Shown piece by piece: positions 5,073 through 26,224 of a stretch of DNA of 61,330 bases. A program made the translations under genes and the position numbers. The stretch covers positions 1-61,330 of the forward strand of contig CAYZYX010000004.1 of NCBI GenBank assembly GCA_964482715.1, read 5' to 3'. This stretch comes from an uncultured Clostridia bacterium. Its GTDB lineage: Bacteria; Aerophobota; Aerophobia; Aerophobales; B3-G15. The stretch's first letter is position 1. Each line of letters begins with the position of its first letter. The notes beneath the pieces were generated by a model, which had not been told where the DNA came from, ran no database searches, and was given only the letters and a program-made list of their open reading frames with translations.

Positions 5073-8000
5073 AATGATATTCTGGCACTAACCAGTGGGG
5101 AAACTGCAACCATATCCTGTGATCTTGATGGGGATGACAATTCAGGTACCCATCAAATTACTGCTGATTATTCTCCCCCTGATCATGAGCCTCCTGAGGT
5201 GGGTTTTTTTGAGGTAAATCCCAATGCCTTCTCACCCAATCAAGATAATATACAGGATACAACCACTATTTCTTATTCTGTAGGAGATAATCAGTCTACT
5301 CAGGTAACCGTAAGACTGGAAATTCGCACGGTAGCAAATACCATAGTCAAAACACTGGTGGATGCTGAAACTCAGGATACCGGTGTTGCTTACAGCTATC
5401 CCTGGGACGGGACTGCTGACAACGGAAATCCTGTGGCTGAGGGGAACTATATTTGTAGAATTTTTGTGCTTGATGGTTCAGGGAACAGTAAAGAAGAAAC
5501 TCTTGGGGTAACCATTGACACCTCTCCTCCTGTTATTAGTGGGGTATCTGCTATTCCCACCCCCTTTTCCCCCAATAATGACTCGGTAAAAGATACCACC
5601 ACCATAACTTTTTCTCTCTCGGGAGCAACTGCGGGTTCTAACCGTGTAGAAATCAGGGATACCCGGGGATTTCTGGTGAGAACCCTGGTTGATGAAATTT
5701 CACCAACTCCTGGAGCAACAAATGGGACAAATACAGTCATCTGGAATGGTAAAGATCTAACAGGAACAGTTGTTCCAGATGACTCTTATTTTTATGAAAT
5801 AATTGCTGTGGATGATGCCGGGAATACCGCTTCGTTCACCGGACAGGTAGTCGTAGATACCACTCCCCCCACCACCGCTATCCAGGTTCTGGACAATACC
5901 GGGACCCATACTTCTCCTTTTGATTTAAGTGATCTGGGGGCTACTCCTCCCACTGGAATTTATATCTCTGATGTTCAGGTAAACGGTGAGTGGCAAACCA
6001 CTGATCCTTCAGGGATTTCAGAAGTTCAGCTTTACATTAATGGAGATCTATTCATTCCTCAAAATCCCAATGGAAACTGGCAGGGCTGGTATCTTTACTG
6101 GACTCCCTCTGCCAGTGATGGGACCTACAATATCCTGGTAAGAGCAGTGGACAATGTAGGATGTGACACTGGTGCCTCCGGTGCTACTGCGTCTATCATA
6201 TATGACAACACGCCTCCCTCAGCAGAGATCAGTTCCCCTCCTGATGGCATAAAATTTAACACAACTGCCCTTCTTATAAGTGGTGTGGCAAGTGATGGAG
6301 CAGAAGGTGTCGGGGTGGAAGAAGTTCAGATTCAGGTGACCAATTTAAGTACCTCCACCGTTATTATAAGTTTTACAACCACAGGGGTTACCGACACAAG
6401 CACTGAAGGAGACTGGTCTACCTGGGAGTATGTGTTTACTCCTCCTGATCCTGGTTCACCTCCGGTAACCTATCGTATTGAATGTCGTGCTCTGGACAGT
6501 CTGTACGATCCACTCTCTCCCACCTCTTCATCTCACATTCAACTTAGCCCTGATTCTATAACCGTTACCTATGATACCAAGAACCCTCCCTATCACCCCA
6601 CCGATTTAAGAGACGATGGAACACCTCTTTCTACCGGGCATATTTTCGGGACCACCAATGTATTGACAGCAAATCAGGAGTATTTCTCTGGTCTTCAGGA
6701 GGTTCGCTTTGAGTATAAAGTTGAGCCTTCGGGAAGCTGGCAGGTTATTGGTTCTGATTCTTGCCCTGGAACCTCATATACCCCCACTGTAACCTGGAAC
6801 ACCCTGGGTCTTTCAACAGATGTTACCTATTCGTTTAGAGCTGTAGCTGTGGGAAATGGAAGCGAGATCCCCTCTGGTGTTTTTAGCAGCTGTCAAATAG
6901 ACAATGTCACTCCCGATGCTCCAGGTAATTTGAAAGATGATGGAGTTTTAATAGAAGATGGTCATATTTTTGGTCGCCTCAATGTTCTTTCAGCAGAAGC
7001 TGATACATCCGATTCTTCCCTTCTGGGTGTAAGATTTGAGTACAGGGACTATACCACATCTTCTACCTGGCAAACTATCGGGATGGATACATCACCACAG
7101 GGAAATGTTTTCAGTGTTAACTGGGATACTTCAACACTTGATCCCACACATACCTATGGAATCAGAGCAGTTTCTGTAGATGCCGGTGGAAATGAAACTT
7201 CTTCTACTGAATTTACTGGATGTGCCATCCAGTTTGGGGCGCCCGTTTTTCAATCTCTTTTTACTGACAGATCAGCCTATAAAAATGGAGATACTATTAA
7301 CATTACGGCTAACCTCGATAACTCTGGATACACTTTATCCTGTAATTTTTCCCCTGTTGATTCAGAATATGGAGAAGGAAACAACGTGGAATGGGTTGAG
7401 GATAATCTTGATTCTACCTATACGATCACTTACACCATATCTTCCTATAACACCAGAGAAGATTCTTCTTATACAGTGATAGTTCAGGCACAGGACAATG
7501 TGGGAAATACCGCTACATCTTCTGTTACAGTCATTCTTGACAATACTTCTCCTACCGGAAGCATCAGTTCGCCTACATCGGGATCAAGCTTATCTGGAAC
7601 CTGCACTTTTTTAATTGTAGATAGTGGGCAGGTTGATTCTGATGTATCCTCGTTTACTCTGGAATATACACCTTCAGGACAGGTTAACTGGTCAACCTGT
7701 CCGGGGCAGGTGCAGGGTAGCTGGACACCTGGAGGGGTCTCTTCCATAGATTTTGACACCACAGCCTGTGGTGATGGAACTTATAATTTCCGTGTCAAAC
7801 TGGAAGATATTGCCGGTAATGCAGGATATACAGACCCAGTATACCTGGTAGTTCTTGACAATGGCTCTCCTCCTGTACCTGCTCAGCTTGAGGCTACACC
7901 AATTTCAGGTGCAAGGGTTAAGTTAACCTGGACCGCTTCTTCCCCTGAAGATGACGTTGATCATTACAACATTTACCGTTCTACGTTTCCTTATACTTAC

Positions 8001-11755: not shown

Positions 11756-11783
11756 TTGACAGAAGGGGCTGATTTAATATAAT
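11756..11783 (+). promoter_or_regulatory. sigma70 promoter of panD-def-lrp
   Basis: Consensus TTGACA-16 nt-TATAAT. Confidence 0.7.
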
Positions 11784-11809: not shown

Positions 11810-12172
11810 ATGCTCAGGATTATATGTCGGGCTAAAATTCATCGTGCCAGGGTAACAGAAACCAATTTAAACTATGAAGGAAGTATAACCCTCGATGTGA
11901 ACTTAATGCGGGCAGCAGGTATTTTTCCCGGAGAAAAAGTTGAAGTTTTCAATCTCAATAATGGGGCAAGGTTTAATACCTATACTATAGAGGGAGAACC
12001 TGACTCTGGTAAGGTTTGTATTAATGGAGCTGCAGCGCGTCTTGCTCAGGTAGGTGATGAGGTGATTATTGTTTCCTATGCACTGGTTGACGAGGAAGAA
12101 ATTGAAGGTGTAAATACCCGGGTCTTGTTTGTGGATCAAAATAACAGACCCACTCATGTAAGGGAAAGTTAA
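11810..12172 (+). CDS. panD: Aspartate 1-decarboxylase
   Basis: '[18 protein letters not shown]' (GS self-cleavage site), 'NGARFNTY', 'INGAAARL'. Confidence 0.96.
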
Positions 12173-12733
12173 ATGCCTGTTCTTAAAATATATAAATATC
12201 CAGATCCTGTTTTGAGGAAAAATTGCAGGAAGGTAGAAAAGGTTGGAGCAAGGGAAAGAAAGATTCTCTCCCAAATGGTTGAGACCATGTATGTCTATGA
12301 AGGTGTGGGTCTTGCTGCTCCTCAGGTAGGTATAGATTTTCAAATGGTAGTGGCTGGTGTCGGGGGAGAGTTATACAAACTGGTAAACCCTTTAATTATT
12401 TACCAGGAAGGAGAGAGTAAAATGGAAGAGGGTTGTCTTTCTCTTCCGGGTGTAACGGTAAAGATAAAAAGGGCTAAAAAAATTCTGGTTGAAGCTTTAA
12501 ATGAAAGAGGTGAACCTGTAAAGATAGAAGCTGAGGATCTTCTGGCTCATGTGTTGCAGCATGAAATAGACCATCTTCAGGGGACACTGATAATTGATTA
12601 TTTAAGTCAGAGAGAATTGAAGAAAATATCTCCAAAGCTAAAAGATTTAGAAGAAGAATTTCAGAAGTCTGAAGATTACGTATCAGGAAGGCAAGTATTA
12701 AAGGATAATGATAAAACGCTTTACAGGAGGTGA
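12173..12733 (+). CDS. def: Peptide deformylase
   Basis: GVGLAAPQVG, EGCLS and QHEIDHL motifs. Confidence 0.96.
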   Translation: MPVLKIYKYPDPVLRKNCRKVEKVGARERKILSQMVETMYVYEGVGLAAPQVGIDFQMVVAGVGGELYKLVNPLIIYQEGESKMEEGCLSLPGVTVKIKRAKKILVEALNERGEPVKIEAEDLLAHVLQHEIDHLQGTLIIDYLSQRELKKISPKLKDLEEEFQKSEDYVSGRQVLKDNDKTLYRR

Positions 12734-12737
12734 TTTA

Positions 12738-12968
12738 ATGGCCAAAGCTTATCTCAAAATTAAAGTCGAGATGGGAAGAGAAAGGGCAGTAAGAGATGCT
12801 TTGTTACGTTTTACTGAAGTAAAGTCAGCAGAACTTACAACCGGAGATCAGGACATTCTGGCTTTAGTTGAAGCTGACAGTTACGAAGATATACTTTTAG
12901 CAGTTGTGGACAGATTAAGAGCACTTAAAGGCATAAAAAGCACTGTTACTGACCTTGTTCTCGAATAA
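12738..12968 (+). CDS. Stand-alone Lrp/AsnC ligand-binding domain protein
   Basis: SD GGAGGTG before ATG 12738; 'AYLKIKVE.G..TGDQDILALVEA..LRALKGIKSTVT'; no HTH. Confidence 0.8.
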   Translation: MAKAYLKIKVEMGRERAVRDALLRFTEVKSAELTTGDQDILALVEADSYEDILLAVVDRLRALKGIKSTVTDLVLE

Positions 12969-12987: not shown

Positions 12988-13022
12988 TGGGGCGTGGCGG
13001 AGCACCAGCACGGCAGGCTTTG
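12988..13022 (+). repeat. Degenerate 5' half of tRNA-Gln(UUG); putative left attachment site
   Basis: Ungapped alignment to 24966-25000 gives 26/35 identities, ending at the anticodon loop CTTTG; 8 of 9 mismatches are transitions. Confidence 0.7.
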
Positions 13023-13125
13023 AGTGTGATTTCAGCTGGCCAGCAAAAATGAAGCTGTTATGAAAATCCTCCTTACCAGCCATCCATCCCATAATTTTTT
13101 TTGTACCAATTATAATCACGCTTTT

Positions 13126-14355
13126 TTAGTCAAGGTGCATTCTTCTTGGCACAATCACTACCCCACCCGGTGAAATTAGAAATTTCTTTGCATCTTCCTC
13201 AAATCTATAGCCTATAGCGTATCCATCAGGCACAAAAACCTCCTCATCAATTATTGTTTTTCTTATGAGAACGTTTTTGCCAATTTTTACACCCCTCATT
13301 AAAATGGAACTTTCTATTCTGCTTCCTCTACCAATATAAACCCGTGGTGAGAGGATAGATCTTTCCACTATTGCCTCGTCTATTATACAGCCTGCAGATA
13401 TAAGAGAATTTAAAACCTCGCACTGCAAAGGAAATCTTTTTGAGGAAATAATTCTTGCAGGAGGATTTTGCTCCTGGTAGGTCCTGAGAGGCCAACCTGG
13501 ATGATAGAGGTCAAATTTTGAGGGAATATCAAGAAGTTCCATGCTTGCCTCCCAGTAAGAATCAATAGTCCCAATATCTTTCCAGTATCCTTCTCCTTTT
13601 TCAGAAAAATTATAACAGCAAACAAGTTTTTCATCCTCCAGCATCTGAGGAATAATATCTCTACCAAAATCATGGCTTGTATTTTTCTTTTTGGCATCTT
13701 TTATTAAGGCTCTTACAATTTCTTCAGTATCAAAAATATAAACTCCCATAGAGACAAGGCATTTTTCAGCCTTTCCGGGTAAAATCTTTGGTCTGGAAGG
13801 TTTCTCCTCAAAAGAAACAATCCTTTCTGCTTCATCAACCTCAAGCACTCCAAATCTTTCTGCCTCTTTTTTATCCACCTCCACACATCCTACAGTAAGA
13901 TGAGCTTTCTTTTCCCTATGAAACTGGAACATATCTGCATAGTTCATCCTGTAAACATGATCTCCTGAGAGAATAAGAACATAGAGAGGTTTTTCCTCCT
14001 GCAAAATGTAGAGGTTCTGAAAAACAGCATCAGCTGTTCCCTCATACCACCTTTCTGCAGTTCTTCTCTGGGGAGGGATGGTTTGAATAAACTCTCCAAG
14101 TTCCCTTGAAAATATACTCCACCCTTCTCTTATATGGGTTTCAAGAGTTGTGGACATATACTGGGTGAGCACGTATATTCTTCTTATCCCGGAGTTAACA
14201 CAGTTTGAAAGAGTAAAATCTATGAGACGGAAAATTCCAGCAAAAGGACATGCTGGTTTTGCTCTTTCTTTGGTGAGAGGATAAAGCCTTTCTCCCTGGC
14301 CTCCTGCCAGAATCAGAGTAAGAAAACCTTCAGGTTTTTGATGCAAAAAAACCAC
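13126..14355 (-). CDS. glgC: Glucose-1-phosphate adenylyltransferase
   Basis: 'ILAGGQGERLYPLTKERAKPA', 'WYEGTADAVFQN', 'LSGDHVYRMNY', 'DFGRDIIP', 'YWKDIGT'; exact start uncertain. Confidence 0.95.
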   Translation of the reverse strand: MVFLHQKPEGFLTLILAGGQGERLYPLTKERAKPACPFAGIFRLIDFTLSNCVNSGIRRIYVLTQYMSTTLETHIREGWSIFSRELGEFIQTIPPQRRTAERWYEGTADAVFQNLYILQEEKPLYVLILSGDHVYRMNYADMFQFHREKKAHLTVGCVEVDKKEAERFGVLEVDEAERIVSFEEKPSRPKILPGKAEKCLVSMGVYIFDTEEIVRALIKDAKKKNTSHDFGRDIIPQMLEDEKLVCCYNFSEKGEGYWKDIGTIDSYWEASMELLDIPSKFDLYHPGWPLRTYQEQNPPARIISSKRFPLQCEVLNSLISAGCIIDEAIVERSILSPRVYIGRGSRIESSILMRGVKIGKNVLIRKTIIDEEVFVPDGYAIGYRFEEDAKKFLISPGGVVIVPRRMHLD

Positions 14356-14360
14356 CCATT

Positions 14361-15845
14361 TTATTTTATTTTATCGAGAATAATTTTGTATATTTTAATA
14401 TATTCCTCAGCAGATTTTCTCCAGGAAAAGTCCTTACTCATTCCACTTTGAACAAGGCTTTTCCAGAGCTTTTTATCCCTGTAAAAAAAGAAAGCTTTTT
14501 TTAAAGCAGAAAGCATCCCCTCTGGAGAGTATTCTCCAAAAAGAAATCCATCTCCCTTTTGAGTTAAAGGGTTAAACTCCTCAACGGTATCGGCAAGACC
14601 TCCTGTTTTTCTGACAACTGGAACTGTCCCAAATCGAAAGCTTATCATCTGTCCAAGCCCACAGGGCTCATACCGGGAAGGCATAAGAAACATGTCACTT
14701 CCTGCATAAATCCTCTTTGCCATCTTAAGATCAAAGGCAATATGAAGGGCCACCTTGCCAGGATATCTTGCTGCTATCTCCTCCAGCATCTTCTGGTATT
14801 TATAATCACCTTTGCCAAGAATAACAAGCTGCACAGGAATATTTACCATCTCCTCTGCTGCTTTACAGATTAAATCAATTCCCTTCTGCTCGGCAAGACG
14901 AGAAACAAAACCTACAACAGGAATATCTTCTACAGGAAATCCATTTTCCTGTTGAAGATATCTTTTATTTTCTCTTTTCCCTTCAAGATTATCTCTGGAA
15001 TAATTTCGGACAATATCTTTATCCGTTGCAGGATTCCAGACATCGTAGTCTATTCCATTTAAAATTCCATAGAGACTATCTCTTCGCCTTCTCAAAACCC
15101 CATCAAGTCCAAAACCAAATTCAGGGGTCTGTATTTCTTTGCTGTAAGTAGGGCTTACCGTATTTACAAGATCAGCATAAAGAAGACCTGCCTTCATCAG
15201 ATTAATTTTTCCCCAAAACTCAAGCCTGGTAAAGGTAAAAAATTCCTCTCCGAGACCTAAAGCCTTCAGCTTTTCCTTTGAGAAAATTCCCTGATAGGCA
15301 AGGTTATGAATGGTAAAAAGGATCCCTGTATTCTTATAACACTCCTTATCAGAGAAAAATTCCTTAAGATAAAGGGGAACAAGAGCAGTTTGCCAGTCAT
15401 TGCAGTGAATAATCCAGGGTTTGTAAGCTGTGCGGGGGATAATAGAAAGAGCTGCCCGACAGAAAAAAGAGAATCTCTCAGCATTATCAGGAAAATCTCC
15501 GTGTTCATCTCCGTAAAGATTTTCTCTATCAAAATATTCCTTTTGCCAGATAAGAAAAACAGGTATCTTTTTCTCCAAATCAAGGAAACTTCTGTACACC
15601 CTGCCTTTTTTAATCTCATCTCCCACAGGAACATCAATTTCAAAAAGCTCTTCCAGGGGAAAATTTTCAGAAAAAATCCTTTTGTATAAAGGAAGCATAA
15701 CACAAACTCTGCAACCTGCCTCAGATAAAGCCCCGGGAAGAGAACCTGCAACATCCGCAAGTCCTCCTGTTTTAGCAAAAGGATAAACCTCCGAAGATAG
15801 AAAAAATACACTTAAATTATTTTCTTTCATCTTTTTTCTCTCCAT
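14361..15845 (-). CDS. glgA: Glycogen synthase
   Basis: 'KTGGLADV', 'HCNDWQT', 'TIHNLAYQG', 'PSRYEPCGLGQM'. Confidence 0.96.
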   Translation of the reverse strand: MERKKMKENNLSVFFLSSEVYPFAKTGGLADVAGSLPGALSEAGCRVCVMLPLYKRIFSENFPLEELFEIDVPVGDEIKKGRVYRSFLDLEKKIPVFLIWQKEYFDRENLYGDEHGDFPDNAERFSFFCRAALSIIPRTAYKPWIIHCNDWQTALVPLYLKEFFSDKECYKNTGILFTIHNLAYQGIFSKEKLKALGLGEEFFTFTRLEFWGKINLMKAGLLYADLVNTVSPTYSKEIQTPEFGFGLDGVLRRRRDSLYGILNGIDYDVWNPATDKDIVRNYSRDNLEGKRENKRYLQQENGFPVEDIPVVGFVSRLAEQKGIDLICKAAEEMVNIPVQLVILGKGDYKYQKMLEEIAARYPGKVALHIAFDLKMAKRIYAGSDMFLMPSRYEPCGLGQMISFRFGTVPVVRKTGGLADTVEEFNPLTQKGDGFLFGEYSPEGMLSALKKAFFFYRDKKLWKSLVQSGMSKDFSWRKSAEEYIKIYKIILDKIK

Positions 15846-15959
15846 ATTCTTCTCTTTTCCGGGAGGTTCAATTTCTCCTTTTGAAGGAATACCTTACTTG
15901 CACAGGAATGACAGGAAAATATATAAAAACAGATGTTCCTCTGTCGTCTCTTGTCTCAA

Positions 15960-16091
15960 GCCTCAAAATATCTTTTTGCACCTTCCATTTTCTCTTCTGT
16001 TAAGTTCACCCTCCACTCTTAAAGCGGGAAACTCGTTGGGCCCACCTCTTATCCATCTTCCAGTAAGGGGATCCCTTCTAAGTTCGTTTAT
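15960..16091 (-). pseudogene. galT: Galactose-1-phosphate uridylyltransferase (GalT-like) remnant
   Basis: Minus strand reads (ATA)NELRRDPLTGRWI-RGG-PNEFPALRVEGELNRR: two GalT N-terminal motifs joined by a deletion; no ATG; early stop. Confidence 0.65.
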
Positions 16092-18589
16092 CCTGTTACC
16101 TTTTTTATTCTTTCTTTCAGTATTTCCCCATCAAAATTTAGCTCCTGTGCAAGAAGAATGAACATCTCGAGAAGACTCTTTTCCTTCTTATTGGAAAAAA
16201 TATTCATCTTCTGGAGAATCATCTCATTAAAAATCTCCCAGATTTTATTTTGAGTCTCATATGTTCTGAAAAAAACCCCAAGAGAGGTCAGGTATTTTTT
16301 AAATTTTACAATTATTTCAACTCTCCCCGGGTCAAGACCTTTCTCCAGCATCCTCACAAGCTGAATTATCTTTTTTTCTGCAATTTTTGCAAGAGGTAAA
16401 GTATCAAGTTTTAGCCCCACATCATCAGCTATTTCTTTTATGCTCTTTGCTCTTTCCAGATACTCAAAATCTTCATCCACCTCAAATTTTTCAAACTCCT
16501 CAACTATCCTGCTGTTAAGCACGTCGGTTAAGAAAAAAGAAAATTCAGAGGGAATCTGCCAACCAAGACGGACAAATTCCCTTATAAGCTGAATATGCCT
16601 GTCAAAAAGAGTGCTGCTTATTTTCCTTATCTCATCAATCCTCTCTTCCATAAGGTAAGAGAGGATTTTCTCTCTGTCCTCGCCGGGCAAGTCCTTCAAA
16701 GTGAAATATTTCTTAAAAAAGGGGGAAACCACATTTATTATTCCCTGAAAATTAAGATCCACCTCCTCGGAAAAAACTTTTTCTTTAAAAGAAAGATATT
16801 CATCATCATTTAAATTATCAGCAACAAAACAGTAAATTTTATGCTTCCCAAAATTAACAAGAAAAAACACACCCTCTTTTTCCTCCCGGGTTGGAAGGTG
16901 AAAAGTTCCACCCCTTCCTGTTTTAAGAAAAACCCCCGGTATTTCTTTTTCTTCAGTTTGAGCTGTCTTAATGCTATAAGTTGGAAAAAAAACATATTCT
17001 TTTTCTTCAAGAAATGTCTCCAGAATAAGGTGTCTTGCAAAGGCTTTCTGCCAGTCTACCACTGAAGGTCTTACAAGCTTTTCATAAACTCCCTTTCCAT
17101 CCTTAAATTCTTCAATATTACTTTTTGCTTCAGATAACCTTATTAAAAAATCCTCCTCAAGTTCCCTACCCGTAAGATCTTTTACATATTGAATAGCCGA
17201 GCCAGCATATCTCAGATTTTGAACTGTCTGAATTTCCGAAATCTCATCAAAAAACCATCCACAGCTTGTAAACATAAGCATACCAAATTTTTGCATCTCA
17301 AGGAGTTTAAGTGCTTTTGTTTTCTTAAAAGGGTCATCTTTACTCTTAAGATGAGAACTCAAAAATCTCTCCACGTTCCCTGGAGAAGGATCAACTATCA
17401 CCTCTATATAGTCATCTCTTGCCTGCCAGGAGTCTTTAAAAACATCTGCACCTTCTCTTTCAAAAATACTGTCAAGTTCACCTTTAAGCCAGTTCAGGGT
17501 ATCTCTTAAGGGTTTTCGCCATTTTTGATTCCAATCAGGATGTGCGCCAGTGTTGCACCCACAATCTTCCTTCCACCTTCCCAATCCATGAACACAACTC
17601 CAGGAGGTTCCCTCTTTTATCTCTACCTCATAAGTGGGAGGATTGTTTTTTAAATACCAGGAATAATTTACAGGTTTAATACCTCTTCTGGCAAGTTCGT
17701 ATTTTACAAGATAAGCAATACACATCTCGCTGAAAGGATGATGGTGTCCAAATGTCTCTCCATCTGTTGCAATGCTGACAAGATAGGGAGAGTATTTTCT
17801 TTCCTTGATGACTTCCTCGATCTTGTTGGCACAAGAAATAGAATCCTTTAAAAGTTTCTCAAAGGAAATTGCATGTGAAAGAGAATGGTGAAAGAAAAAG
17901 ACATCTATGAATTTTTCCTTTATTTTACTTCCTTTCTCATTTTTTAAAAAAAGCCTGTAGGGCATTCCTGTATCTATATTTCCATCTGAAACATCCACCC
18001 AGGAAGACTCGTCAGCATCAATTGGTTTTATTCTTTTTGCCTGCAGAGGGGACAAAATAACAAATTTCATACCACACTCAATTAAAACCCGAGCTGTGGG
18101 ATAGTCTATTGCAGTCTCAGGAAGCCACATCGCCTCGGGCAGACGTCCAAATTTTTTTTCAAAAAATCTTATCCCCCACCTTACCTGAGTAAACCTGTCT
18201 TTTTCTTCTGCAAGAGGCATTATCATATGATTATACACCTGAGCAATAGCATTTCCACAACGATCATTTTTTTCAAGACTCTCCCTGTCTGCCTGAAGAA
18301 CCCTTTCTATCACAGAAGGAAAATTCTTCTCCAGCCAGGAAAAAAGTGTGGGCCCAAAATTAAAGTTGATGTAGGAATAGTTATTTATAATATCAACAAT
18401 TTTGTTTTTCTCATTTAAAACTCTTGCCCAGGCATTAGGAATATAGCACTGGTAGGTTATAAGTTCATTCCAGTTGTGGTAGGGAAATGTCTCTTTTTGT
18501 CTTTCTACAAGTTCTGTCCAGGGATTTTCCCTTGGCGGCTGGTAAAAATGCCCATGAATTACAATATAAGATGAAGTTTCCTGATTCAT
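16088..18589 (-). CDS. GH57-family DUF3536 glycoside hydrolase
   Basis: 'IHGHFYQPPRENPW', 'FNFGPTL', 'AMWLPETA', 'ATDGETFGHH', 'SWSCVHGLGRW..DCGC', 'MFTSCGWFFD'. Confidence 0.92.
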   Translation of the reverse strand: MNQETSSYIVIHGHFYQPPRENPWTELVERQKETFPYHNWNELITYQCYIPNAWARVLNEKNKIVDIINNYSYINFNFGPTLFSWLEKNFPSVIERVLQADRESLEKNDRCGNAIAQVYNHMIMPLAEEKDRFTQVRWGIRFFEKKFGRLPEAMWLPETAIDYPTARVLIECGMKFVILSPLQAKRIKPIDADESSWVDVSDGNIDTGMPYRLFLKNEKGSKIKEKFIDVFFFHHSLSHAISFEKLLKDSISCANKIEEVIKERKYSPYLVSIATDGETFGHHHPFSEMCIAYLVKYELARRGIKPVNYSWYLKNNPPTYEVEIKEGTSWSCVHGLGRWKEDCGCNTGAHPDWNQKWRKPLRDTLNWLKGELDSIFEREGADVFKDSWQARDDYIEVIVDPSPGNVERFLSSHLKSKDDPFKKTKALKLLEMQKFGMLMFTSCGWFFDEISEIQTVQNLRYAGSAIQYVKDLTGRELEEDFLIRLSEAKSNIEEFKDGKGVYEKLVRPSVVDWQKAFARHLILETFLEEKEYVFFPTYSIKTAQTEEKEIPGVFLKTGRGGTFHLPTREEKEGVFFLVNFGKHKIYCFVADNLNDDEYLSFKEKVFSEEVDLNFQGIINVVSPFFKKYFTLKDLPGEDREKILSYLMEERIDEIRKISSTLFDRHIQLIREFVRLGWQIPSEFSFFLTDVLNSRIVEEFEKFEVDEDFEYLERAKSIKEIADDVGLKLDTLPLAKIAEKKIIQLVRMLEKGLDPGRVEIIVKFKKYLTSLGVFFRTYETQNKIWEIFNEMILQKMNIFSNKKEKSLLEMFILLAQELNFDGEILKERIKKVTG

Positions 18590-18739
18590 ATTTTATTTTC
18601 TTTTANNNNNNNNNNNNNNNNNNNNNNNNNNNNNNNNNNNNNNNNNNNNNNNNNNNNNNNNNNNNNNNNNNNNNNNNNNNNNNNNNNNNNNNNNNNNNNN
18701 NNNNNAAAAAACGCTTTCTAATTATATCAGTTTTTTTTC

Positions 18740-20245
18740 TTACTTCAAACATCTTCCGTATATTCTGGTAAGTCCCCTGAGGTGAAAACTAACCTCATCT
18801 TTCATCTGCTCAAGTGAAAGTCGCCACTCCCAGTTTCCCTTTGAGGTTGAGGGAGTATTCATTCTTGCTTTACTTCCAAGACCAAGGACATCCTGCATGG
18901 GTAAAATGGAAAGGTCTGCAACGGACATCATGGCAAGACGTATAAACTCTTTTGAAACTTCTCCTGGGGAAATTTCTCTTCCGATATAATGGAAAAGCCT
19001 TTCTTTTTCCTCAGAGGATGCCTCCTCTTCAAACCACCCCCTTGCAGTATTGGTATCGTGAGTCCCCGTGTAAACCACACAATTTCTCACATAGTTGTGA
19101 GGAGCATAGGGGTGTCTTGCGGTATCCTCTCCAAAGGCAAAAAGAAGAATTTTCATTCCCGGTATATTGAATTTCTGCATGATATACTCCACATCAGGTG
19201 TAATAAATCCGAGGTCCTCGGCAATAAAGGGAAGATGGGGAAATTCTTTAGAAATAGTTTTAAAGAAATCCTCTGCTGGGACTTCAATCCACCTTCCTGC
19301 CATGGCTGTCTTTTCTCCTGCAGGGACTTCCCAGAAGCTCACAAATCCACGAAAATGGTCAATTCTTACAATATCAAACAAGCAGAGACTGTGCCTGATC
19401 CTGTTTATCCACCATCTGTATTTTTGTTCCTTCAATACATCCCATTTATAAACAGGGTTTCCCCACAATTGTCCTGTGTTGCTGAAATAATCAGGAGGAA
19501 CACCCGCCACAAAAACAGGTCTTTTTTCCTTATCCAGTTTAAAAATTTCCGGATTTGCCCACACATCAACACTATCACATGTTGGATATATGGGAAGATC
19601 CCCAATTATACGTATTCTTTTCAGACTGCAGTATTTTTTTAAAGAAAACCACTGCTTGAAAAAAAGAAATTGAAAAAATTTTTCTCTCTGAATATCCTGA
19701 TCAAGCTTATTTTTTAGGAAATTAAGAGCACAAGGTTCTCTATCCCGAAATTCAGAAGGCCACTTATTCCAGGAAGCTTTATTAAAATAACTTTTTAGAG
19801 CTATAAACAGGGAAAAATCATCAAGCCAGGATGCATTTTTCTGGCAGAATTTTCCAAATTCATCTTTTGCCTGTTTTTTTCTTTTAAAATTTTCCCATGC
19901 TTCATTCAGAAGCCTTCTTTTATAAGAAAAAGCGAGAGGATAGTTACATTTTTCTTTCGGGAAAGGGGGAAGGGAAGCCACATCTTTTTCCAGTAGAAGC
20001 CCCTCCTTAACAAGAATGGAAGGGCTTATAAATAAGGGATTACCAGCAAAAAGAGAGAAACTGCTGTAGGGAGAGTTGCCAAAGAGAAGATCGGTAGGAG
20101 AAAAAGGAAGGACCTGCCAGAAACTCTGTTTGCTCTCAGCAAGAAAATCGATAAACCTGTAGGCCCCAGGACCAAAATCTCCTATTTCAAAAGGAGAGGG
20201 AAGAGAAGTTATATGAAGGAGTATCCCGCTTGCCCTTTTTCTCAT
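18740..20245 (-). CDS. malQ: 4-alpha-glucanotransferase (GH77)
   Basis: 'SGILLHITSLP', 'GVPPDYFS.TGQLWGNP', 'RIDHFRGF', 'IAEDLG', 'YTGTHD'; ATG 20245 with SD GGGAGA. Confidence 0.95.
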   Translation of the reverse strand: MRKRASGILLHITSLPSPFEIGDFGPGAYRFIDFLAESKQSFWQVLPFSPTDLLFGNSPYSSFSLFAGNPLFISPSILVKEGLLLEKDVASLPPFPKEKCNYPLAFSYKRRLLNEAWENFKRKKQAKDEFGKFCQKNASWLDDFSLFIALKSYFNKASWNKWPSEFRDREPCALNFLKNKLDQDIQREKFFQFLFFKQWFSLKKYCSLKRIRIIGDLPIYPTCDSVDVWANPEIFKLDKEKRPVFVAGVPPDYFSNTGQLWGNPVYKWDVLKEQKYRWWINRIRHSLCLFDIVRIDHFRGFVSFWEVPAGEKTAMAGRWIEVPAEDFFKTISKEFPHLPFIAEDLGFITPDVEYIMQKFNIPGMKILLFAFGEDTARHPYAPHNYVRNCVVYTGTHDTNTARGWFEEEASSEEKERLFHYIGREISPGEVSKEFIRLAMMSVADLSILPMQDVLGLGSKARMNTPSTSKGNWEWRLSLEQMKDEVSFHLRGLTRIYGRCLK

Positions 20246-20249
20246 TTTT

Positions 20250-20330
20250 CTCCCTTTCAAGCATAATCTTCGCTTCTTCAAGAGTCTCTCTGGCTCTTTG
20301 TCTTCTATAGTTGATAATCTCCTTTCTCAT
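20250..20330 (-). pseudogene. HEPN-domain protein N-terminal fragment
   Basis: 'MRKEIINYRRQRARETLEEAKIMLE' begins at an ATGA overlap with the MNT stop and is cut off at the malQ RBS. Confidence 0.55.
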
Positions 20331-20674
20331 CTTAAAATTATCCCTTCCCTGTCAATATTCCAGTGTATAGGCATTGCCTTTGCCAGAGAAGAATTCCAGA
20401 AAGTTCTGGATTCAACAAGAATCCCAAACACAACGTCGTATTTTAGTTCAATCTCAAAACTTAAGGCAAAAATATCCTCCCCCAATCTATCATCCACATC
20501 TCTGTTTAATAAAATAAGAACATCAATATCAGATTCCTCGCCAGCATCTCCTCTTGCTTTTGAACCATAAAGAATAATTTCTACATCAGAAAACCTTTCG
20601 GTTATCTTTTTTTAGCTCATCCAGTGCTTTTTTTCATTTTCCTTAAGATTTAACTTCTTCTTTAACGACTTCAT
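20327..20674 (-). pseudogene. Minimal nucleotidyltransferase (MNT) pseudogene
   Basis: 'IILYGSKARGDAGEESDIDVLIL...NIDREGIILR'; an early in-frame TAA between two A7 runs; not in the ORF track. Confidence 0.75.
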
Positions 20675-20826
20675 TTTTTCCTTCCATTAAATAAACCCTA
20701 TTTTTAAATTCTTTCCACGAGAGTGTTAAAAAGCCGTGGTGAGTGTCATGAGTAATTATAAAGGTAAACTACGAGAAAGTCAAAGAAATAGGAGCGATAA
20801 GATAACAGGAAAAAATACGCAGACTG

Positions 20827-20854
20827 TTGACATTTGAGTATATAGACTTATAAT
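20827..20854 (+). promoter_or_regulatory. sigma70 promoter of the SAP-glgB unit
   Basis: TTGACA-16 nt-TATAAT. Confidence 0.7.
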
Positions 20855-20874
20855 TTCCCCAAAGGTGGAAATTA

Positions 20875-21057
20875 ATGAACATCGCAAAAATAAGAAAAAT
20901 GGCAAAAAACATGGGAATAAATACCTACCGGAAGAAGAAACAGGAGATAATCCATCTTATCCAGACAAAGGAAGGAAATTTCCCCTGCTTTGGAACAGCA
21001 AAAGATTTCTGTAATAGGTTTGACTGTTTGTGGCGGGAAGACTGCCTGAAAAAATAA
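20875..21057 (+). CDS. Small SAP/Rho-N-like protein with four C-terminal cysteines
   Basis: 'IRKMAK.MGI...KKK.EIIHLIQ..EGN.PCFGT...C....CLWREDC'; 3 nt before glgB. Confidence 0.75.
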   Translation: MNIAKIRKMAKNMGINTYRKKKQEIIHLIQTKEGNFPCFGTAKDFCNRFDCLWREDCLKK

Positions 21058-21060
21058 AAA

Positions 21061-23079
21061 ATGTCCCGGCAGAAAAATAAAAATCCCCAGAATTCCTCCT
21101 CTATCTCGCCCTTCCTGAGTGACTTTGAGCTTTACCTTTTTGGGAAAGGGGATTATCACAGAGTTTATGAAAAAATGGGAGCCCACCTGAGAGAGGTAAA
21201 GGGCAAAGTTGGTGTAAATTTTGCTGTCTGGGCTCCAAATGCAAAAAAAGTAAGTGTGGTAGGTGACTTCAATGAATGGGACAGTAATGCCCATCCAATG
21301 ACACCCAGGAAAAACTCAGGTGTATGGGAGATATTTATACCCGGAGTAAAAAAAGGTTCTCTTTATAAATACCACATCCTCACCTGTGAAGGTGATATAA
21401 AAATTAAAGCAGATCCCTGTGCTTTTTTCTGCGAATCTCCCCCCAGAACAGCCTCCATCGTATGGGAAATTGACAGCTATAAATGGAAGGACAGAGACTG
21501 GATGGAGAAAAGGAGACACCAAAATCCACTTGAGATGCCACTTTCTATATACGAGGTTCACACTGGATCCTGGATGAGAATACCGGAGGAGAAAAACAGA
21601 GTTTTAACCTATACAGAACTTGCTGAAAAACTTATTCCTTATGTAAAGGAAATGGGATTTACTCATATTGAACTTCTGCCCATAATGGCACATCCCTATG
21701 ATGCTTCCTGGGGATATCAGGTTACAGGATATTATTCGCCTACTCCAGGGCATGGAACTCCACAGCAACTTATGGAATTTATTGATACTTGTCACCAAAA
21801 TGAAATTGGAGTAATCCTTGATTGGGTTCCAGGTCATTTCCCCAAAGATGACTTTGCACTTGCAAGATTTGACGGAACCTGTCTTTATGAACATCTTGAC
21901 CCAAGAAAGGCGGAACACAAAGACTGGGGCACTCTTATCTTTAACCATGGGAGGTGTGAGGTTGCCAATTTTCTTCTTGGTAGTGCTCTTTTCTGGCTGG
22001 AAAAATACCATGCTGATGGTCTGAGGGTGGATGCCGTTGCCTCCATGCTTTATCTTGACTTTTCCAGAAAAGAGGGTGAATGGGTGCCAAACAAATTTGG
22101 AGGAAGAGAAAATCTTGAGGCAATTGATTTTTTAAAAAAATTAAATACCCTCACCCACCACTATTTTCCAGGAGTCCTGATGATTGCTGAGGAATCAACT
22201 GCCTGGCCTGGTGTTACAAAACCAGCTCATCTTGGAGGACTTGGATTTGGATTTAAATGGAATATGGGATGGATGCATGATACCCTTTGCTACATGTCCA
22301 AAGACCCGATTTACCGAAAATACTGTCATGACAACCTGACCTTTAGTCTCCTTTACGCCTTCCAGGAAAACTTTATCCTTCCTTTATCTCATGATGAGGT
22401 TGTCCATGGAAAAGGCTCGCTCATTGCTAAAATGCCAGGAGATGTTTGGCAGAAATTTGCTAATTTGAGACTCCTTTTTGGTTTAATGTATGCACATCCT
22501 GGGAAAAAACTTCTCTTTATGGGTCAGGAAATAGCTCAGTGGAGAGAATGGGATTACAAAAGTAGCCTTGACTGGCATCTTCTTAACCATGAACTTCACA
22601 AAAAGCTGCAAAAATTTGTAAAAGACCTCAATACCCTTTACAAAAAAGAGCCCTCTTTGTATCTTGTTGATTTTCAACCTGATGGCTTTGAATGGATAGA
22701 TTTTCATGATGTTGAAAAAAGCATAATCTCTTTTATAAGAAAGGAAAAAGATGTCCGGGATCTTCTAATTTTTGTTTTTAATTTCACACCTGTTCCAAGG
22801 GAAAACTATAAAGTAGGAGTGCCTTTTGGGGGATTTTACAGGGAGATATTAAACAGCGATTCACGAATTTACGGTGGGTCAAATACTGGAAATATGGGAG
22901 GAGTATTTGCAGAAAATCTCCCTTTTCATGGAAGACTTTTCTCTCTCACCTTAACCCTTCCTCCCCTTGGAATGGTAGTCCTGAAACCAGAAGAAGAAAA
23001 TCTTCAACGGAAAGATGAAGGTAGAAAAAATGAACCTTGCCCATGTTTGCCACCTGATTCCGGAAACCCGCGTGAATAA
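21061..23079 (+). CDS. glgB: 1,4-alpha-glucan branching enzyme (GH13)
   Basis: 'FAVWAPNA', 'IYEVHTGSW', '[10 protein letters not shown]', '[12 protein letters not shown]', 'IAEESTAWP', '[12 protein letters not shown]'. Confidence 0.97.
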
Positions 23080-23136
23080 AGGATAAAATTTTTATCTGGC
23101 ACTACAAAATGCCAAAAGCCGCTTCAATTCTTTATT

Positions 23137-23391
23137 TCAGGGATTAAGATCCTTTATCTCAAGAGCCTCTTTGTAGCTTTGCATGGCTTTAGCTCGCACT
23201 ATTTCCTCATATTCTTTTCTTTCTCTGGATTCTACCACAAAAACTCTTTTTCCATCATCTGTTAAAGTTTCCTGGAACCGGGTATTATCATCTATTCTCT
23301 GCCAGGTATCTTTTAACTTTTCAAAATACTTTTCTGTTTTCTTTGATCTTCTTCGGGGATGCCCCAGTCCTTCCGGTAGGGAGAATGTCAC
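23137..23391 (-). CDS. Hypothetical protein, probably the 3' fragment of a longer gene
   Basis: Protein-like charged composition; the frame stays open upstream of the GTG with no clear start. Confidence 0.35.
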   Translation of the reverse strand: MTFSLPEGLGHPRRRSKKTEKYFEKLKDTWQRIDDNTRFQETLTDDGKRVFVVESRERKEYEEIVRAKAMQSYKEALEIKDLNP

Positions 23392-23516
23392 ATAGGTAAT
23401 AAGGAAACTATTCTCCTTATCGCACTCAAAATGAAGTTTTAACCGGTATCTTCTTGAAAATGCAAGATAAATTAAGAATAATATAGAACAAATAACTATT
23501 ATAAGGAGATAACAAA

Positions 23517-23732
23517 ATGATCAAAAAGAAAACTGCTATCTTTGGACATTTCTGTATTATATTAGGCTGCTATTTGGTAACTTGGGGAATTTATCTATTA
23601 CCAGTAAGTAAGCCAACTTTTGTGGGGATTTTGACAGGGCCCTTATTCTGGGGATTGTTTTCAATATTTGGAGGTATCTGTGCCAATGTGCATTCCTATT
23701 GTAAATGTATTCAAGGGCAAAGATGTAGTTGA
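23517..23732 (+). CDS. Small two-helix membrane protein with Cys-rich tail
   Basis: SD TAAGGAG; two hydrophobic segments; 'C..H..C.C' ending. Confidence 0.6.
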   Translation: MIKKKTAIFGHFCIILGCYLVTWGIYLLPVSKPTFVGILTGPLFWGLFSIFGGICANVHSYCKCIQGQRCS

Positions 23733-23798
23733 GGCTTTGTGGCGAGAGCTTTAGATTTAGAAGAAGACTTACTCTGATAGTCTTCTTTGAACATCCTG

Positions 23799-24300
23799 TC
23801 ATACTTTTACGGGAACACTTAAAAAAACCTCCACCACCCCTGGATCAAACTGAGTGCCAGAGCATCTTTTTATTTCCTTTCTTGCCTCCCCAAGGGATAT
23901 TTTCTTTCTGTAGGGGCGGTTAGTTGTCATGGCATCAGAGGCATCTGCAACCTGGAAAATTCTTGCCGAAAGAGAAATCTTATTACCTGAAAGACCAAAA
24001 GGATAGCCTTTTCCATGCACGCATCTTATTTCTCCCTCTTTATGTCCGAAGTATCGTTGCATCTTTTAAAATTGTCTATATCAAGGTAAAGAAGCGAAAA
24101 AACCTCTTTGTATCTTTTAAACCCTTTAGAATTTTTTCTGCAAGCTGCTTTACAGTTTTAGACCTGTTGATTGCCCTTCCAAGTAACCTGTAGAATTTAT
24201 CAAGTTTTTCACTTTCCTCTTGCCCGGTTATATCTTTGGTCATGGAAATAACAATTTGGTTTTCTCCTTCATCCCGTAAACAACAAAACGGTCTTGTCAT
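23799..24300 (-). pseudogene. Collapsed sensor/GGDEF/HD-GYP c-di-GMP enzyme remnant
   Basis: Successive frames give a PAS-C-like 'KDIT', GGDEF start 'SLLYLDIDNFKRCNDT/FGHKEGE', and HD-GYP end 'GKGYPFGLSG..I.L.ARI.QVADA.DAMTTNRPYRK...SGTQFDP.VV..FL'. Confidence 0.75.
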
Positions 24301-24477
24301 TTGATGAATGAGGATCTCTGGTGTATTCTTCTTAGAGTTTTAGGGCCATAAGTCAATGCAAATTTTTTATCATTTGAGTATTAACTAAAAGCAAGAAATT
24401 TTATTTTTCAATTATTAGAGTCTCAAAGTCAGCTGTCAAGAAGCAATCTTTTTACACAGAAATTATAGGACATAATC

Positions 24478-24893
24478 GAAAATATTGACTTTAGGCAGAA
24501 ACTTATATATATTATGAATAGCAAAAGCAAAGAAAAACGGGAAATACCAATGAATGATTTGGTAGTTAGGCTATTGGCGAAGCAGAGGCAAAAAAAGCAG
24601 GAGGAGTATGTATTCTGCGGAAAAACGGTTCCCCTCTTAAAAGCATCCAGACAGGATTTAAAGCTGCCTGCAGAAAAGCAGGCATAGAAAACTTCAGGTT
24701 TCACGACTTAAGGCACACTTTTGCTTCGCACCTTGTTATGAATGGGATAGACCTGAGGACGGTCCAGGGGCTTATGGGACACAAATCGTTCAACATGTCC
24801 TTGAGGTGCACGACCTTTCTCCTGATCATAAAAGAAGTGCGGTGAGCCTTCTGGGTGAAAAAATGCAGAAGGTAGTCACAATTTGGTCACAAT
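24478..24893 (+). pseudogene. Tyrosine integrase C-terminal remnant
   Basis: 'ENIDF....I...SKSKEKREIPMN', frameshift, 'FKAACRKAGIENFRFHDLRHTFASHLVMNGIDLRTVQGLMGHKS'; the catalytic Tyr region is disrupted. Confidence 0.85.
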
Positions 24894-24965
24894 ACCGGGA
24901 ATGAGAAGCCAACATTTATTTTCAAGAACTGCTGTAAGAATAGAAAAAGTACCCGGGAAACTATT

Positions 24966-25040
24966 TGGGGCGTGGCGAAGCGGTAACGCAGCGGACTTTG
25001 GATCCGCCATTCGGAGGTTCGAATCCTCCCGCCCCAACCA
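24966..25040 (+). tRNA. tRNA-Gln(UUG)
   Basis: Acceptor stem TGGGGCG/CGCCCCA, anticodon stem GCGGA-CTTTGGA-TCCGC, T-arm GGAGG-TTCGAAT-CCTCC, encoded CCA. Confidence 0.96.
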
Positions 25041-25070
25041 CTTCCCCGCTAATTTGAAGAAAAGAGGATA

Positions 25071-26054
25071 ATGCAAGAGGGTGAATTTGATTTTATCCGG
25101 CAAATCAGAAAACTTGTGGCTGATTCCAAAAAGAGAACTCTAATAGGAATCGGAGATGATGCGGCTGTTATAAGGGGAAGAAGAAAGAGAGTCTATCTTT
25201 TTACTACTGACACTTTAGTTGAGGATGTTCACTTTAAGTGGAGGTTTACAACTGCCCGGCAAATTGGGTGGCGAGCTCTGGCAGTAAATGTCTCCGATAT
25301 TGCTGCCATGGGGGGCTGTCCAGCAGTTGCTCTTGTGACACTGGGACTTCCACGAGGTACCTCCAGTAGCAAAATTGATGAAATTTACAGAGGAATATTA
25401 GATCTATCCTCAAGATTAGACATAGAGATAGCCGGAGGGGATATTGTTCGTTCCCCTATTTTTTTTATTACTATATCTCTCCTGGGAGAAGCCGAAGCTG
25501 ACAAAGTAGTCTTGAGAAAAGGGGCAAAGCCCGGAGATATTATTTATGTTACCGGCTCGATAGGTTCAGCAGCTACCGGACTTATTTGTCTTATGCGGAA
25601 GGATGTTCCTTTAAGAAGTGAGGTGAGAGATTTTCTGGAAGGAAAATGGCTTTTTCCTATTCCAAAAGTGGAAGAAGCCCGTCAAATTGCCACCAGAAAC
25701 TTATCCACGGCAATGATTGATATAAGCGATGGATTGAGTGCCGATCTTTATCACATTCTTGAAGAAAGTGAAGTTGGAGCAGAATTATGGATGAATAAAA
25801 TCCCTGTCGATGAGCGGACAAAGGAAGCTCTTCCTAAGTTAGGTAAATCATTTTATGATGTTGTGCTGGAAGGAGGGGAGGACTATGAGCTTCTATTTAC
25901 TTCCTCGGCAGACAGAGATGTTGAAAAAAGCCTTGATTTTCCTGTTTGTGCTATTGGAAAGATTGTTCCTGACAGGCTAAAACTGTGGCTCATTGACGAG
26001 AAAGGTGAAAAAAGAGAAATTTTTCCCAGAGGATGGGACCATTTTTTATCCTGA
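25071..26054 (+). CDS. thiL: Thiamine-monophosphate kinase
   Basis: 'GIGDDAAV', 'TDTLVEDVHF', 'NVSDIAAMGG', 'MIDISDGL', 'GGEDYELLFT', 'GWDHF'. Confidence 0.95.
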   Translation: MQEGEFDFIRQIRKLVADSKKRTLIGIGDDAAVIRGRRKRVYLFTTDTLVEDVHFKWRFTTARQIGWRALAVNVSDIAAMGGCPAVALVTLGLPRGTSSSKIDEIYRGILDLSSRLDIEIAGGDIVRSPIFFITISLLGEAEADKVVLRKGAKPGDIIYVTGSIGSAATGLICLMRKDVPLRSEVRDFLEGKWLFPIPKVEEARQIATRNLSTAMIDISDGLSADLYHILEESEVGAELWMNKIPVDERTKEALPKLGKSFYDVVLEGGEDYELLFTSSADRDVEKSLDFPVCAIGKIVPDRLKLWLIDEKGEKREIFPRGWDHFLS

Positions 26055-26196: not shown

Positions 26197-26224
26197 TTGA
26201 CATAGAGGTGAAACTAACTATCAT
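26197..26224 (+). promoter_or_regulatory. sigma70 promoter of the gap operon
   Basis: TTGACA-16 nt-TATCAT. Confidence 0.6.

Follow-up and report, generated by a model that had tools for sequence, protein, structure and literature searches.

Why should a broken integrase gene persist directly ahead of the only tRNA-Gln(TTG) gene of a sediment bacterium, and how did a full set of glycogen genes come to lie behind it? Both questions are raised by the 61,330-nucleotide stretch of DNA analysed here (the window: positions 1 to 61,330 of contig CAYZYX010000004.1, GenBank assembly GCA_964482715.1, named as an uncultured Clostridia bacterium and placed by GTDB in the Aerophobota). An original prediction, made from the letters alone, took positions 12988 to 25040 for an old island inserted at the anticodon loop of tRNA-Gln, in which an integrating element supplied a new 5' half of the tRNA with its upstream region, and in which the glycogen cargo was kept while the mobility genes decayed. 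Comparison with relatives bears out the island and leaves the origin of the cargo in doubt. Beyond this, sequence comparisons lead us to think it probable that a 29-bp stretch inside the integrase gene is a promoter that drives the host tRNA, and that it is selectively kept in decaying relics of such integrases.

The comparison set comprises 31 Aerophobota genomes, namely the window's own (G000; 1.57 Mb in 54 contigs) and 30 relatives. For the integrase, GlgC and GlgA, those relatives that carry a name put the host in the Aerophobota as well. Genes in the window were called with Pfam and the tRNA with ARAGORN, the phylum-wide DNA scan for integrases and their arms was a pattern search, and assembly joints were checked against contigs from four public runs (X1, X2 and X3 among them). 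Sixteen runs contain at least one fifth of this DNA, and every one of them carries a hydrothermal vent, sediment or marine metagenome label.

An old reverse-orientation island in tRNA-Gln(TTG)

The attachment (att) sites of the island, its integrase remnant and its host flanks are:
11756-11783, plus strand: host sigma70-type promoter match (12/12) upstream of panD-def-lrp, its function predicted
11810-12968, plus strand: panD, def and an lrp/AsnC-domain gene, the host left flank (Pfam; order conserved in relatives)
12988-13025, plus strand: displaced original 5' half of tRNA-Gln(TTG), the left att site (27/38, through the anticodon loop)
13026-13122, plus strand: decayed left att arm of the element (pairwise alignment to the G001 arm at the same tRNA)
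24478-24894, plus strand: frameshifted tyrosine integrase remnant, codons ~202-340 of a 344-amino-acid intact relative (PF00589, E 9e-18)
24485-24513, plus strand: sigma70-like site TTGACT-17-TATATT within the integrase coding sequence (10/12)
24875-24891, plus strand: tandem arm-type repeat of the right att arm, within the final codons of the integrase (highest peak of synonymous conservation in the clade)
24966-25040, plus strand: intact hybrid tRNA-Gln(TTG), 5' half from the element and 3' half from the host (ARAGORN)
25071-26054, plus strand: thiL, the host right flank, followed by gap-pgk-tpi-secG (Pfam; order as in relatives)

Positions 12988-13022 align without gaps to the first 35 nt of the tRNA gene (24966-25000) at 26/35, and the mismatches are, as first described, nearly all transitions (eight, with one transversion). 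Over the 54 contigs and both strands this block is the best non-self match, the runner-up reaching 23/35. Similarity had been said to stop at the anticodon; its end does lie at the loop, but the fragment runs on to position 38, with two extra transitions, and so spans the whole anticodon loop. At 13017 an allele (G>A) restores the tRNA base in two of the four runs (X1, X3), and the displaced fragment is therefore still decaying. From fragment start to tRNA start the island measures 11,978 bp (11.98 kb), the integrase remnant ends 72 bp upstream of the tRNA, close to the ~70 bp originally given, and the tRNA is the sole Gln(TTG) gene of the assembly.

Directly after the fragment lie some 100 bp of decayed element arm, for which the best local alignment is the left arm of a relative's island at the same tRNA (G001; score 77, against shuffles with mean 52.4, standard deviation 6.0 and maximum 73, n = 300). 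A profile of the family's left arms did not detect the window's left arm, which the pairwise alignment alone finds. The left arm repeats, expected ~160 nt past the fragment start, are lost; a 7/8 arm-like match at 13148, exactly at the expected place, was rejected because it belongs to the GlgC coding sequence, with a C-terminus that homologs conserve.

The corresponding site in relatives settles what was inserted into what. An empty site, with lrp and an intact tRNA-Gln within 180 nt of each other, is present in 18 of the 30 relatives, and in five of seven family members lrp and the tRNA are just 11-18 nt apart; the other relatives comprise four with 1.1-1.4 kb between the two genes (L011, L014, L018 and L022, without an integrase match), one occupied site (G001), two cut by contig ends and five without a tRNA match. 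Relatives carry no glg genes at lrp-tRNA-Gln, which speaks against vertical descent of the cluster at this locus. The G001 island has a 38/38 fragment after lrp, different cargo, and an integrase remnant with arm before the intact tRNA at 83% DNA identity to the window's; on these comparisons it is an independent insertion at the same tRNA, with orthologous integrase and arms. Just within its left end G001 also encodes a large serine recombinase (L021 5005-6612). The relatives' sites, the G001 island and the G001-like left arm together identify the left copy as the displaced host half and assign the working 5' half to the element.

Could the left copy instead match by chance, or be what is left of a tandem tRNA, or could mis-assembly have produced the region, so that there is no island at all? 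Identity of only 26/35 would allow this, as would the repeated insertion sequence (IS) remnant at 23071-23339, for which no bridge was found among the contig pieces listed. Yet the best genome-wide match falls exactly where the tRNA stands in relatives, lacks a 3' half and is followed by element arm, and both island junctions are crossed by single contigs from other runs. The 100-N stretch (18606-18705) is a scaffolding placeholder of true length about zero, with 18604 joined straight to 18706 in three of the four runs (X1, X2, X3), so that it conceals no mis-join. We consider this explanation very improbable, and the interval is confirmed as an old, decayed island in tRNA-Gln(TTG), in reverse orientation, with the element supplying the 5' half. 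It is no longer an active element, its integrase being broken and its left arm repeats gone, and the only lrp-tRNA joints in the four runs, examined as possible excision joints, have a different spacer and fit another species.

Reverse orientation is a habit of the whole integrase clade. Relatives of the integrase are spread across the phylum at 36-90% identity (median 56%), and 17 of 23 scored members end, measured from the RYxH codon, 136-168 nt ahead of a co-oriented tRNA, targeting 12 tRNA kinds (anticodons) in all; six of the 23 loci have no tRNA, one of them through lack of contig. The C-terminal tail runs into the tRNA in 9/17 loci, while the catalytic domain lies wholly upstream. The tandem arm repeat in the last codons gives the strongest synonymous-conservation peak of the clade (0.30-0.35), occurs in 28/31 genomes, well above a reversed-pattern control, and sits 73-96 nt upstream of intact tRNAs. 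Among 25 fresh 5' fragments (three rows being copies of one sequence), 22 start 158-162 nt before an arm repeat. Four arm matches face a tRNA on the opposite strand, so some clade members are not reversed; the habit nonetheless belongs to a phylum-wide clade and extends to at least 12 tRNA kinds. Islands of this orientation are reportedly associated with Zhao and Williams (2002).

A complete clade island, 22.8 kb at tRNA-Gly, carries restriction and other defence-type genes: the intact reverse island G017:C183 (L077, L084 1-4100) encodes an Eco57I-like methylase, an SNF2-PLD helicase, a HerA-like ATPase, a Schlafen domain, ParA and MNT. No structural or conjugation genes, as of a prophage or an integrative conjugative element, were found in the window island or among the 16 open reading frames (ORFs) of G017:C183. 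In six G017 contigs (C58, C87, C114, C124, C137, C183) left att sites are preceded by truncated integrase stubs without catalytic end or arm, which suggests repeated integration, truncation and re-integration at one tRNA. In G000 itself the clade has visited five tRNA loci, the further ones being Arg(CCT), Val-Asp, Leu(CAA) and Lys(CTT) (C20 180-347, C45 9709-10066, C2 74309-74448, C15 start, C49 17-156). A viral-contig scan with one intact-integrase query found no relative, and the closest integrases in a phage collection are only 34% identical to the clade.

A promoter-like stretch in the integrase relics

What remains of the window's integrase begins 7 nt ahead of a TTGACT box. With TATATT, 17 nt further on, this box forms a 29-bp site aimed at the tRNA that agrees with the consensus at 10 of 12 positions and has the -35 and -10 boxes at the 16-18 nt spacing of sigma70 promoters; sites of the TTGACA/TATAAT type are the ones used by the host, G000. 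The idea that this site is a promoter was formed after two cases and then tested on further relics, by mapping with an integrase DNA profile the codons that relics before intact tRNAs retain. The census covers the matches listed, 15 further matches lying outside the set. Left out of the count were relics cut by a contig end (G002:C14, G005:C68, G006:C106, G010:C107, G018:C237), relics without a downstream tRNA, G012:C45, where the integrase lies downstream of the tRNA, and relics before a tRNA fragment, which were counted separately.

Codons 204-217 are kept in 15 of the 16 relics found by protein search, the 15 coming from 12 genomes, and in 11 of these the site passes a strict consensus rule. 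Five more relics came from scanning the whole of G000 and from a search anchored on the arm; the stretch is kept in two of them, and one has a matching site of unconfirmed origin. Taken together, codons 204-213 are kept in 17 of 21 decayed relics before intact tRNAs, whereas HDLRH is retained in 8, RYAH in 10 and the arm in 13 of the same relics, and none of 20000 circular shifts reaches 17/21. The relic edges frame the stretch, with ten left edges falling within codons 186-204 and six right edges within 216-224; in the G000 scan all three relics begin inside that left range (codons 186-204) and have the site. Where a relic stands before a tRNA fragment, and so marks an earlier occupant, the stretch is kept in 5/5 distinct cases. 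Of the longer integrases, 8 in 20 have the site, where synonymous resampling predicts 1.6 +/- 1.2 (0/300).

At the same time, several observations weigh against a kept promoter. Windowed synonymous conservation at codons 202-213 is at background (0.03-0.06, against 0.30-0.35 at the arm). When each tRNA locus is allowed one relic, retention is 8-9/11 and P(max anywhere) ranges from 0 to 0.16 (median 0.01); in a separate run the per-locus P is 0.11 under the least favourable choice of relics. Most relics come through protein matches, a possible bias of the set. The strict consensus rule fails in 4/15 of the protein-search retainers, G019:C43 retains the codons on visual inspection but matches the consensus poorly and was scored negative, and the conserved V/I-D-F motif by itself favours TTGAC. 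The stretch is missing from two Leu(CAG) relics, where another promoter match is present instead, and a Leu-CAA branch appears, from its sequence, to rely on a site lying between arm and tRNA. The window's own site is 452 nt away from the tRNA, and plus-strand promoter matches at 20827, 23454 and 24167 could read through.

Such points would fit an island of the same kind whose integrase remnant is inert debris. The tRNA would then be reached by read-through that starts at the glgB promoter or at some other site upstream, and detection bias or deletion hot spots would explain the stretch that relics share. The promoter match at 20827 is 12/12, no terminator-like site was called on the plus strand from 21000 to 25400, several breakpoints cluster near codons 221-224, and the background-level synonymous conservation and weaker per-locus statistics point the same way. 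Debris would hardly explain, however, why a stretch with lower conservation than the catalytic motifs, and at a greater distance from the tRNA, is kept more often than they are, or why it survives as an isolated patch between two deletions in G004:C207 (codons 197-216), G022:C13 (193-223) and G029:C370 (199-224); the arm-anchored search, which is independent of protein matches, also gave a further supporting case. We therefore hold neutral decay of this kind to be unlikely, and continue to favour a promoter kept for the tRNA.

The sequence of events can be pictured as follows. Comparison with relatives shows that a tyrosine-integrase element, whose own attachment site (attP) held the tRNA's 5' half, recombined at the anticodon loop of tRNA-Gln(TTG) and so landed upstream of the restored gene. 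A promoter would not fit into a spacer of 11-18 nt, and the tRNA was presumably co-transcribed with lrp from the promoter match before panD; insertion would have cut off the sole Gln(TTG) gene and thiL from that promoter (gap-pgk-tpi-secG has a separate match at 26197-26224), and the element's sigma70-type promoter within the integrase coding sequence may then have taken over. The element has since died, its integrase frameshifted and cut short and its left arm repeats gone, with the displaced tRNA half still decaying. Recurrence across relics suggests that deletions ate into the integrase as far as the -35 box and stopped there because the remaining piece now drives a host gene. The glycogen genes stand intact in the island behind what look like their own divergent promoters. 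As a whole, a reverse island whose integrase-internal promoter is kept for a host tRNA is in our judgement the likelier account, held with reasonable but far from full confidence.

In G000 contigs C6, C11 (two places), C38 and C49, TTGAC -35 boxes are preceded, at a distance of 10-15 nt, by a shared motif with the core GAAACTGGA. Four of these places are before tRNA genes, and the motif is possibly an activator site of stable-RNA promoters.

The glycogen genes and their origin

Between the two tRNA copies the window holds:
13126-14355, minus strand: glgC, ADP-glucose pyrophosphorylase (Pfam, homologs, motifs)
14361-15845, minus strand: glgA, glycogen synthase (Pfam, homologs, tree)
15984-16061, minus strand: galT remnant, the best piece of a gene with several deletions across 15846-16087 (tblastn with G003 GalT, 69% over 26 amino acids, E 2e-7)
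16088-18589, minus strand: GH57 + DUF3536 glycoside hydrolase (Pfam)
18606-18705, no strand: N gap (18604-18706 joined in X1, X2 and X3 contigs)
18740-20281, minus strand: malQ, 4-alpha-glucanotransferase, GH77 (Pfam)
20330-20648, minus strand: MNT-type nucleotidyltransferase antitoxin pseudogene, frameshifted near its start (family searches)
20755-20854, both directions: divergent sigma70-type promoter matches, 11/12 towards malQ-GH57-glgA-glgC and 12/12 towards the small ORF and glgB, their function predicted
20875-21057, plus strand: small Rho_N-like protein, with a counterpart between malQ and glgB in G019 (72%)
21061-23079, plus strand: glgB, branching enzyme (Pfam, motifs)
23044-23520, minus strand: IS1634-like transposase remnant, second copy on contig C39 (NCBIfam E 0.025 only)
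23799-24339, minus strand: HD-GYP gene fragment (Pfam HD_5 on 23799-24062; the upstream frame has no family match)

All five glycogen genes named at the outset (glgC, glgA, GH57, malQ, glgB) are thus present, and the predicted minimum of five pseudogenes can be named as well: galT, the MNT antitoxin, the weakly supported IS1634-like transposase, HD-GYP and the integrase. The glycogen genes are full length and have the catalytic motifs that were checked, save one GH57 pattern, the patterns being those generally known for these families; 10/14 of the strain variants listed in them are synonymous (210 further ones lie outside that list). They probably give the host a synthesis and recycling pathway. 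No match to glycogen phosphorylase (PF00343) was found in G000 by a search that also missed a phosphorylase-like ORF beside pyk in G019.

Whether these genes came with the element, and were kept while it decayed, can be argued both ways. The cluster lies wholly between the att sites, its genes are rare among the 30 other phylum genomes (glgC in 1, glgA in 2, glgB in 3), by tetranucleotide distance the island ranks at the 99th percentile among 183 windows of the genome, and an intact family island of 22.8 kb shows that such elements can be big enough. On the other side, the compositional profile is divided, since codon adaptation of the glycogen genes is host-like (84th-99th percentile of host genes), and the trees do not make the genes clearly foreign. 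The closest named GlgA is that of G003, from the same family, at 64%, and a quick GlgA tree groups the two with unnamed proteins, apart from G019's; the nearest match of GlgC, for which a FastTree tree was made, is an Aerophobetes protein at 82%. Identities of the window's glg proteins to those of G003 (55-64%) fall inside the range of other genes shared by the two genomes (41-83%). A metagenome scan with GlgC returned only relatives at 44-52% and no congeneric locus. Two other examined family islands carry defence and unknown genes. The genes, intact as they are, look host-like and closest to those of a family member, and arrival as cargo of the element we would put a little short of an even chance.

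The alternative is that the genes were already in the lineage, or came from another Aerophobota, and entered the dead island later. The 3' end of glgC sits at the place of the left arm repeats, so that this junction would have formed after integration; against this, a deletion after integration accounts equally well for the lost repeats. An IS1634-like remnant adjoins glgB, and the cluster unites blocks that are apart elsewhere (GH57-galT-(...)-glgA in G003, malQ / small ORF-glgB in G019). The type of pyk that adjoins glg genes in G003 and G019 also exists in G000, on another contig. Yet no glg remnant was found near pyk or elsewhere in G000, and six of seven family genomes (57-92% complete) show neither glgA nor glgB. 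We regard later entry as an even bet, and as at least as likely as arrival with the element; the same-family relatives, host-like codons, position of glgC and IS remnant leave the cargo claim no more than a possibility.

Pyruvate kinase itself falls into two phylum types (compared over L212-L229): one at 66-70% in G000 (G000:C15 30022-31434), G003, G011, G017 and G019, largely the genomes with glg genes, and one at 43-47% in 13 genomes. Elsewhere in the window, 5199-10943 encodes a 1914-amino-acid protein that combines FlgD-Ig with many Ig-like domains and keeps its place upstream of panD in relatives. G003 (L165 6958-9942) encodes a 994-amino-acid RtcB-like protein with a long insertion of intein-like appearance.

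Known relatives of this arrangement and what it would mean

The island is a real example of a known but uncommon kind. The Islander survey assigned a 5' fragment of the tRNA gene to 159/3919 islands (PMC4383910), and our interval has what defines that class: fragment and gene on the same replicon and in the same orientation, the gene end included, the fragment upstream, a span within 2-200 kb, and a tyrosine integrase domain (PF00589) in the interval, here in a frameshifted remnant at 65 bits against a cut-off of 27. Crossover in the anticodon loop is likewise shared, since identity in G001 ends at position 38 and other fresh fragments end just past the loop. What differs is that the habit is clade-wide, at no fewer than 12 tRNA kinds, and that relics converge on a promoter-like stretch within the integrase gene; this recurrent retention, as read from the relics, is the new part.

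The pTN3-like integrases of Thermococcales also target the tRNA 5' half, and a review states that the tRNA they restore takes its expression from the integrase promoter, a situation it calls seldom in bacteria (PMC8371274); another paper describes the tRNA as parted from its original promoter (PMC5495485). Those integrases are split in two by integration and use their own upstream promoter. In the Aerophobota clade, unlike pTN3 and SSV suicidal integrases, the gene is not split and its catalytic domain lies wholly upstream of the tRNA; the core has arm-type repeats to either side of it, and the coding sequence itself contains the candidate promoter. HTVC019P-type pelagiphages, active phages of SAR11, have attP downstream of the integrase, and several restore the 5' end of tRNA-Cys, -Leu or -Arg; the word promoter is absent from the main text of that report (10.1101/410191). 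The glycogen genes match the standard bacterial GlgC-GlgA-GlgB pathway with MalQ and GH57, catalytic motifs included, and depart from it in sitting within a tRNA island and in lacking a PF00343 match. Our literature search, outside which most subscription papers fell, found no account of an integrase-internal promoter selectively kept before tRNAs and nothing on Aerophobota glycogen genes.

Reverse islands must furnish a promoter for the tRNA they restore, and within the literature searched its place and fate are unmapped; here, deletions that recur in 12 genomes narrow it to a 29-bp candidate. The comparison further gives an uncharacterised integrase clade a defined attP layout and a dozen target tRNAs, and describes, in the glycogen cluster, a carbon-storage pathway rare in this sediment phylum. 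If the promoter reading is true, it would account for the dead integrase stubs that persist before tRNA genes, and would represent a repeated, dateable conversion of mobile-element coding sequence into a host regulatory part. With slightly better than even confidence we would go further: the clade may carry an overprinted promoter for host tRNAs, so that each reverse integration swaps the promoter and decay prunes the island down to it, and many present-day tRNA promoters of the phylum would then be domesticated integrase fragments, replaced at each new integration. Retention of the promoter would also make that end of the island undeletable, and it may thereby shelter genes such as the glycogen cluster.

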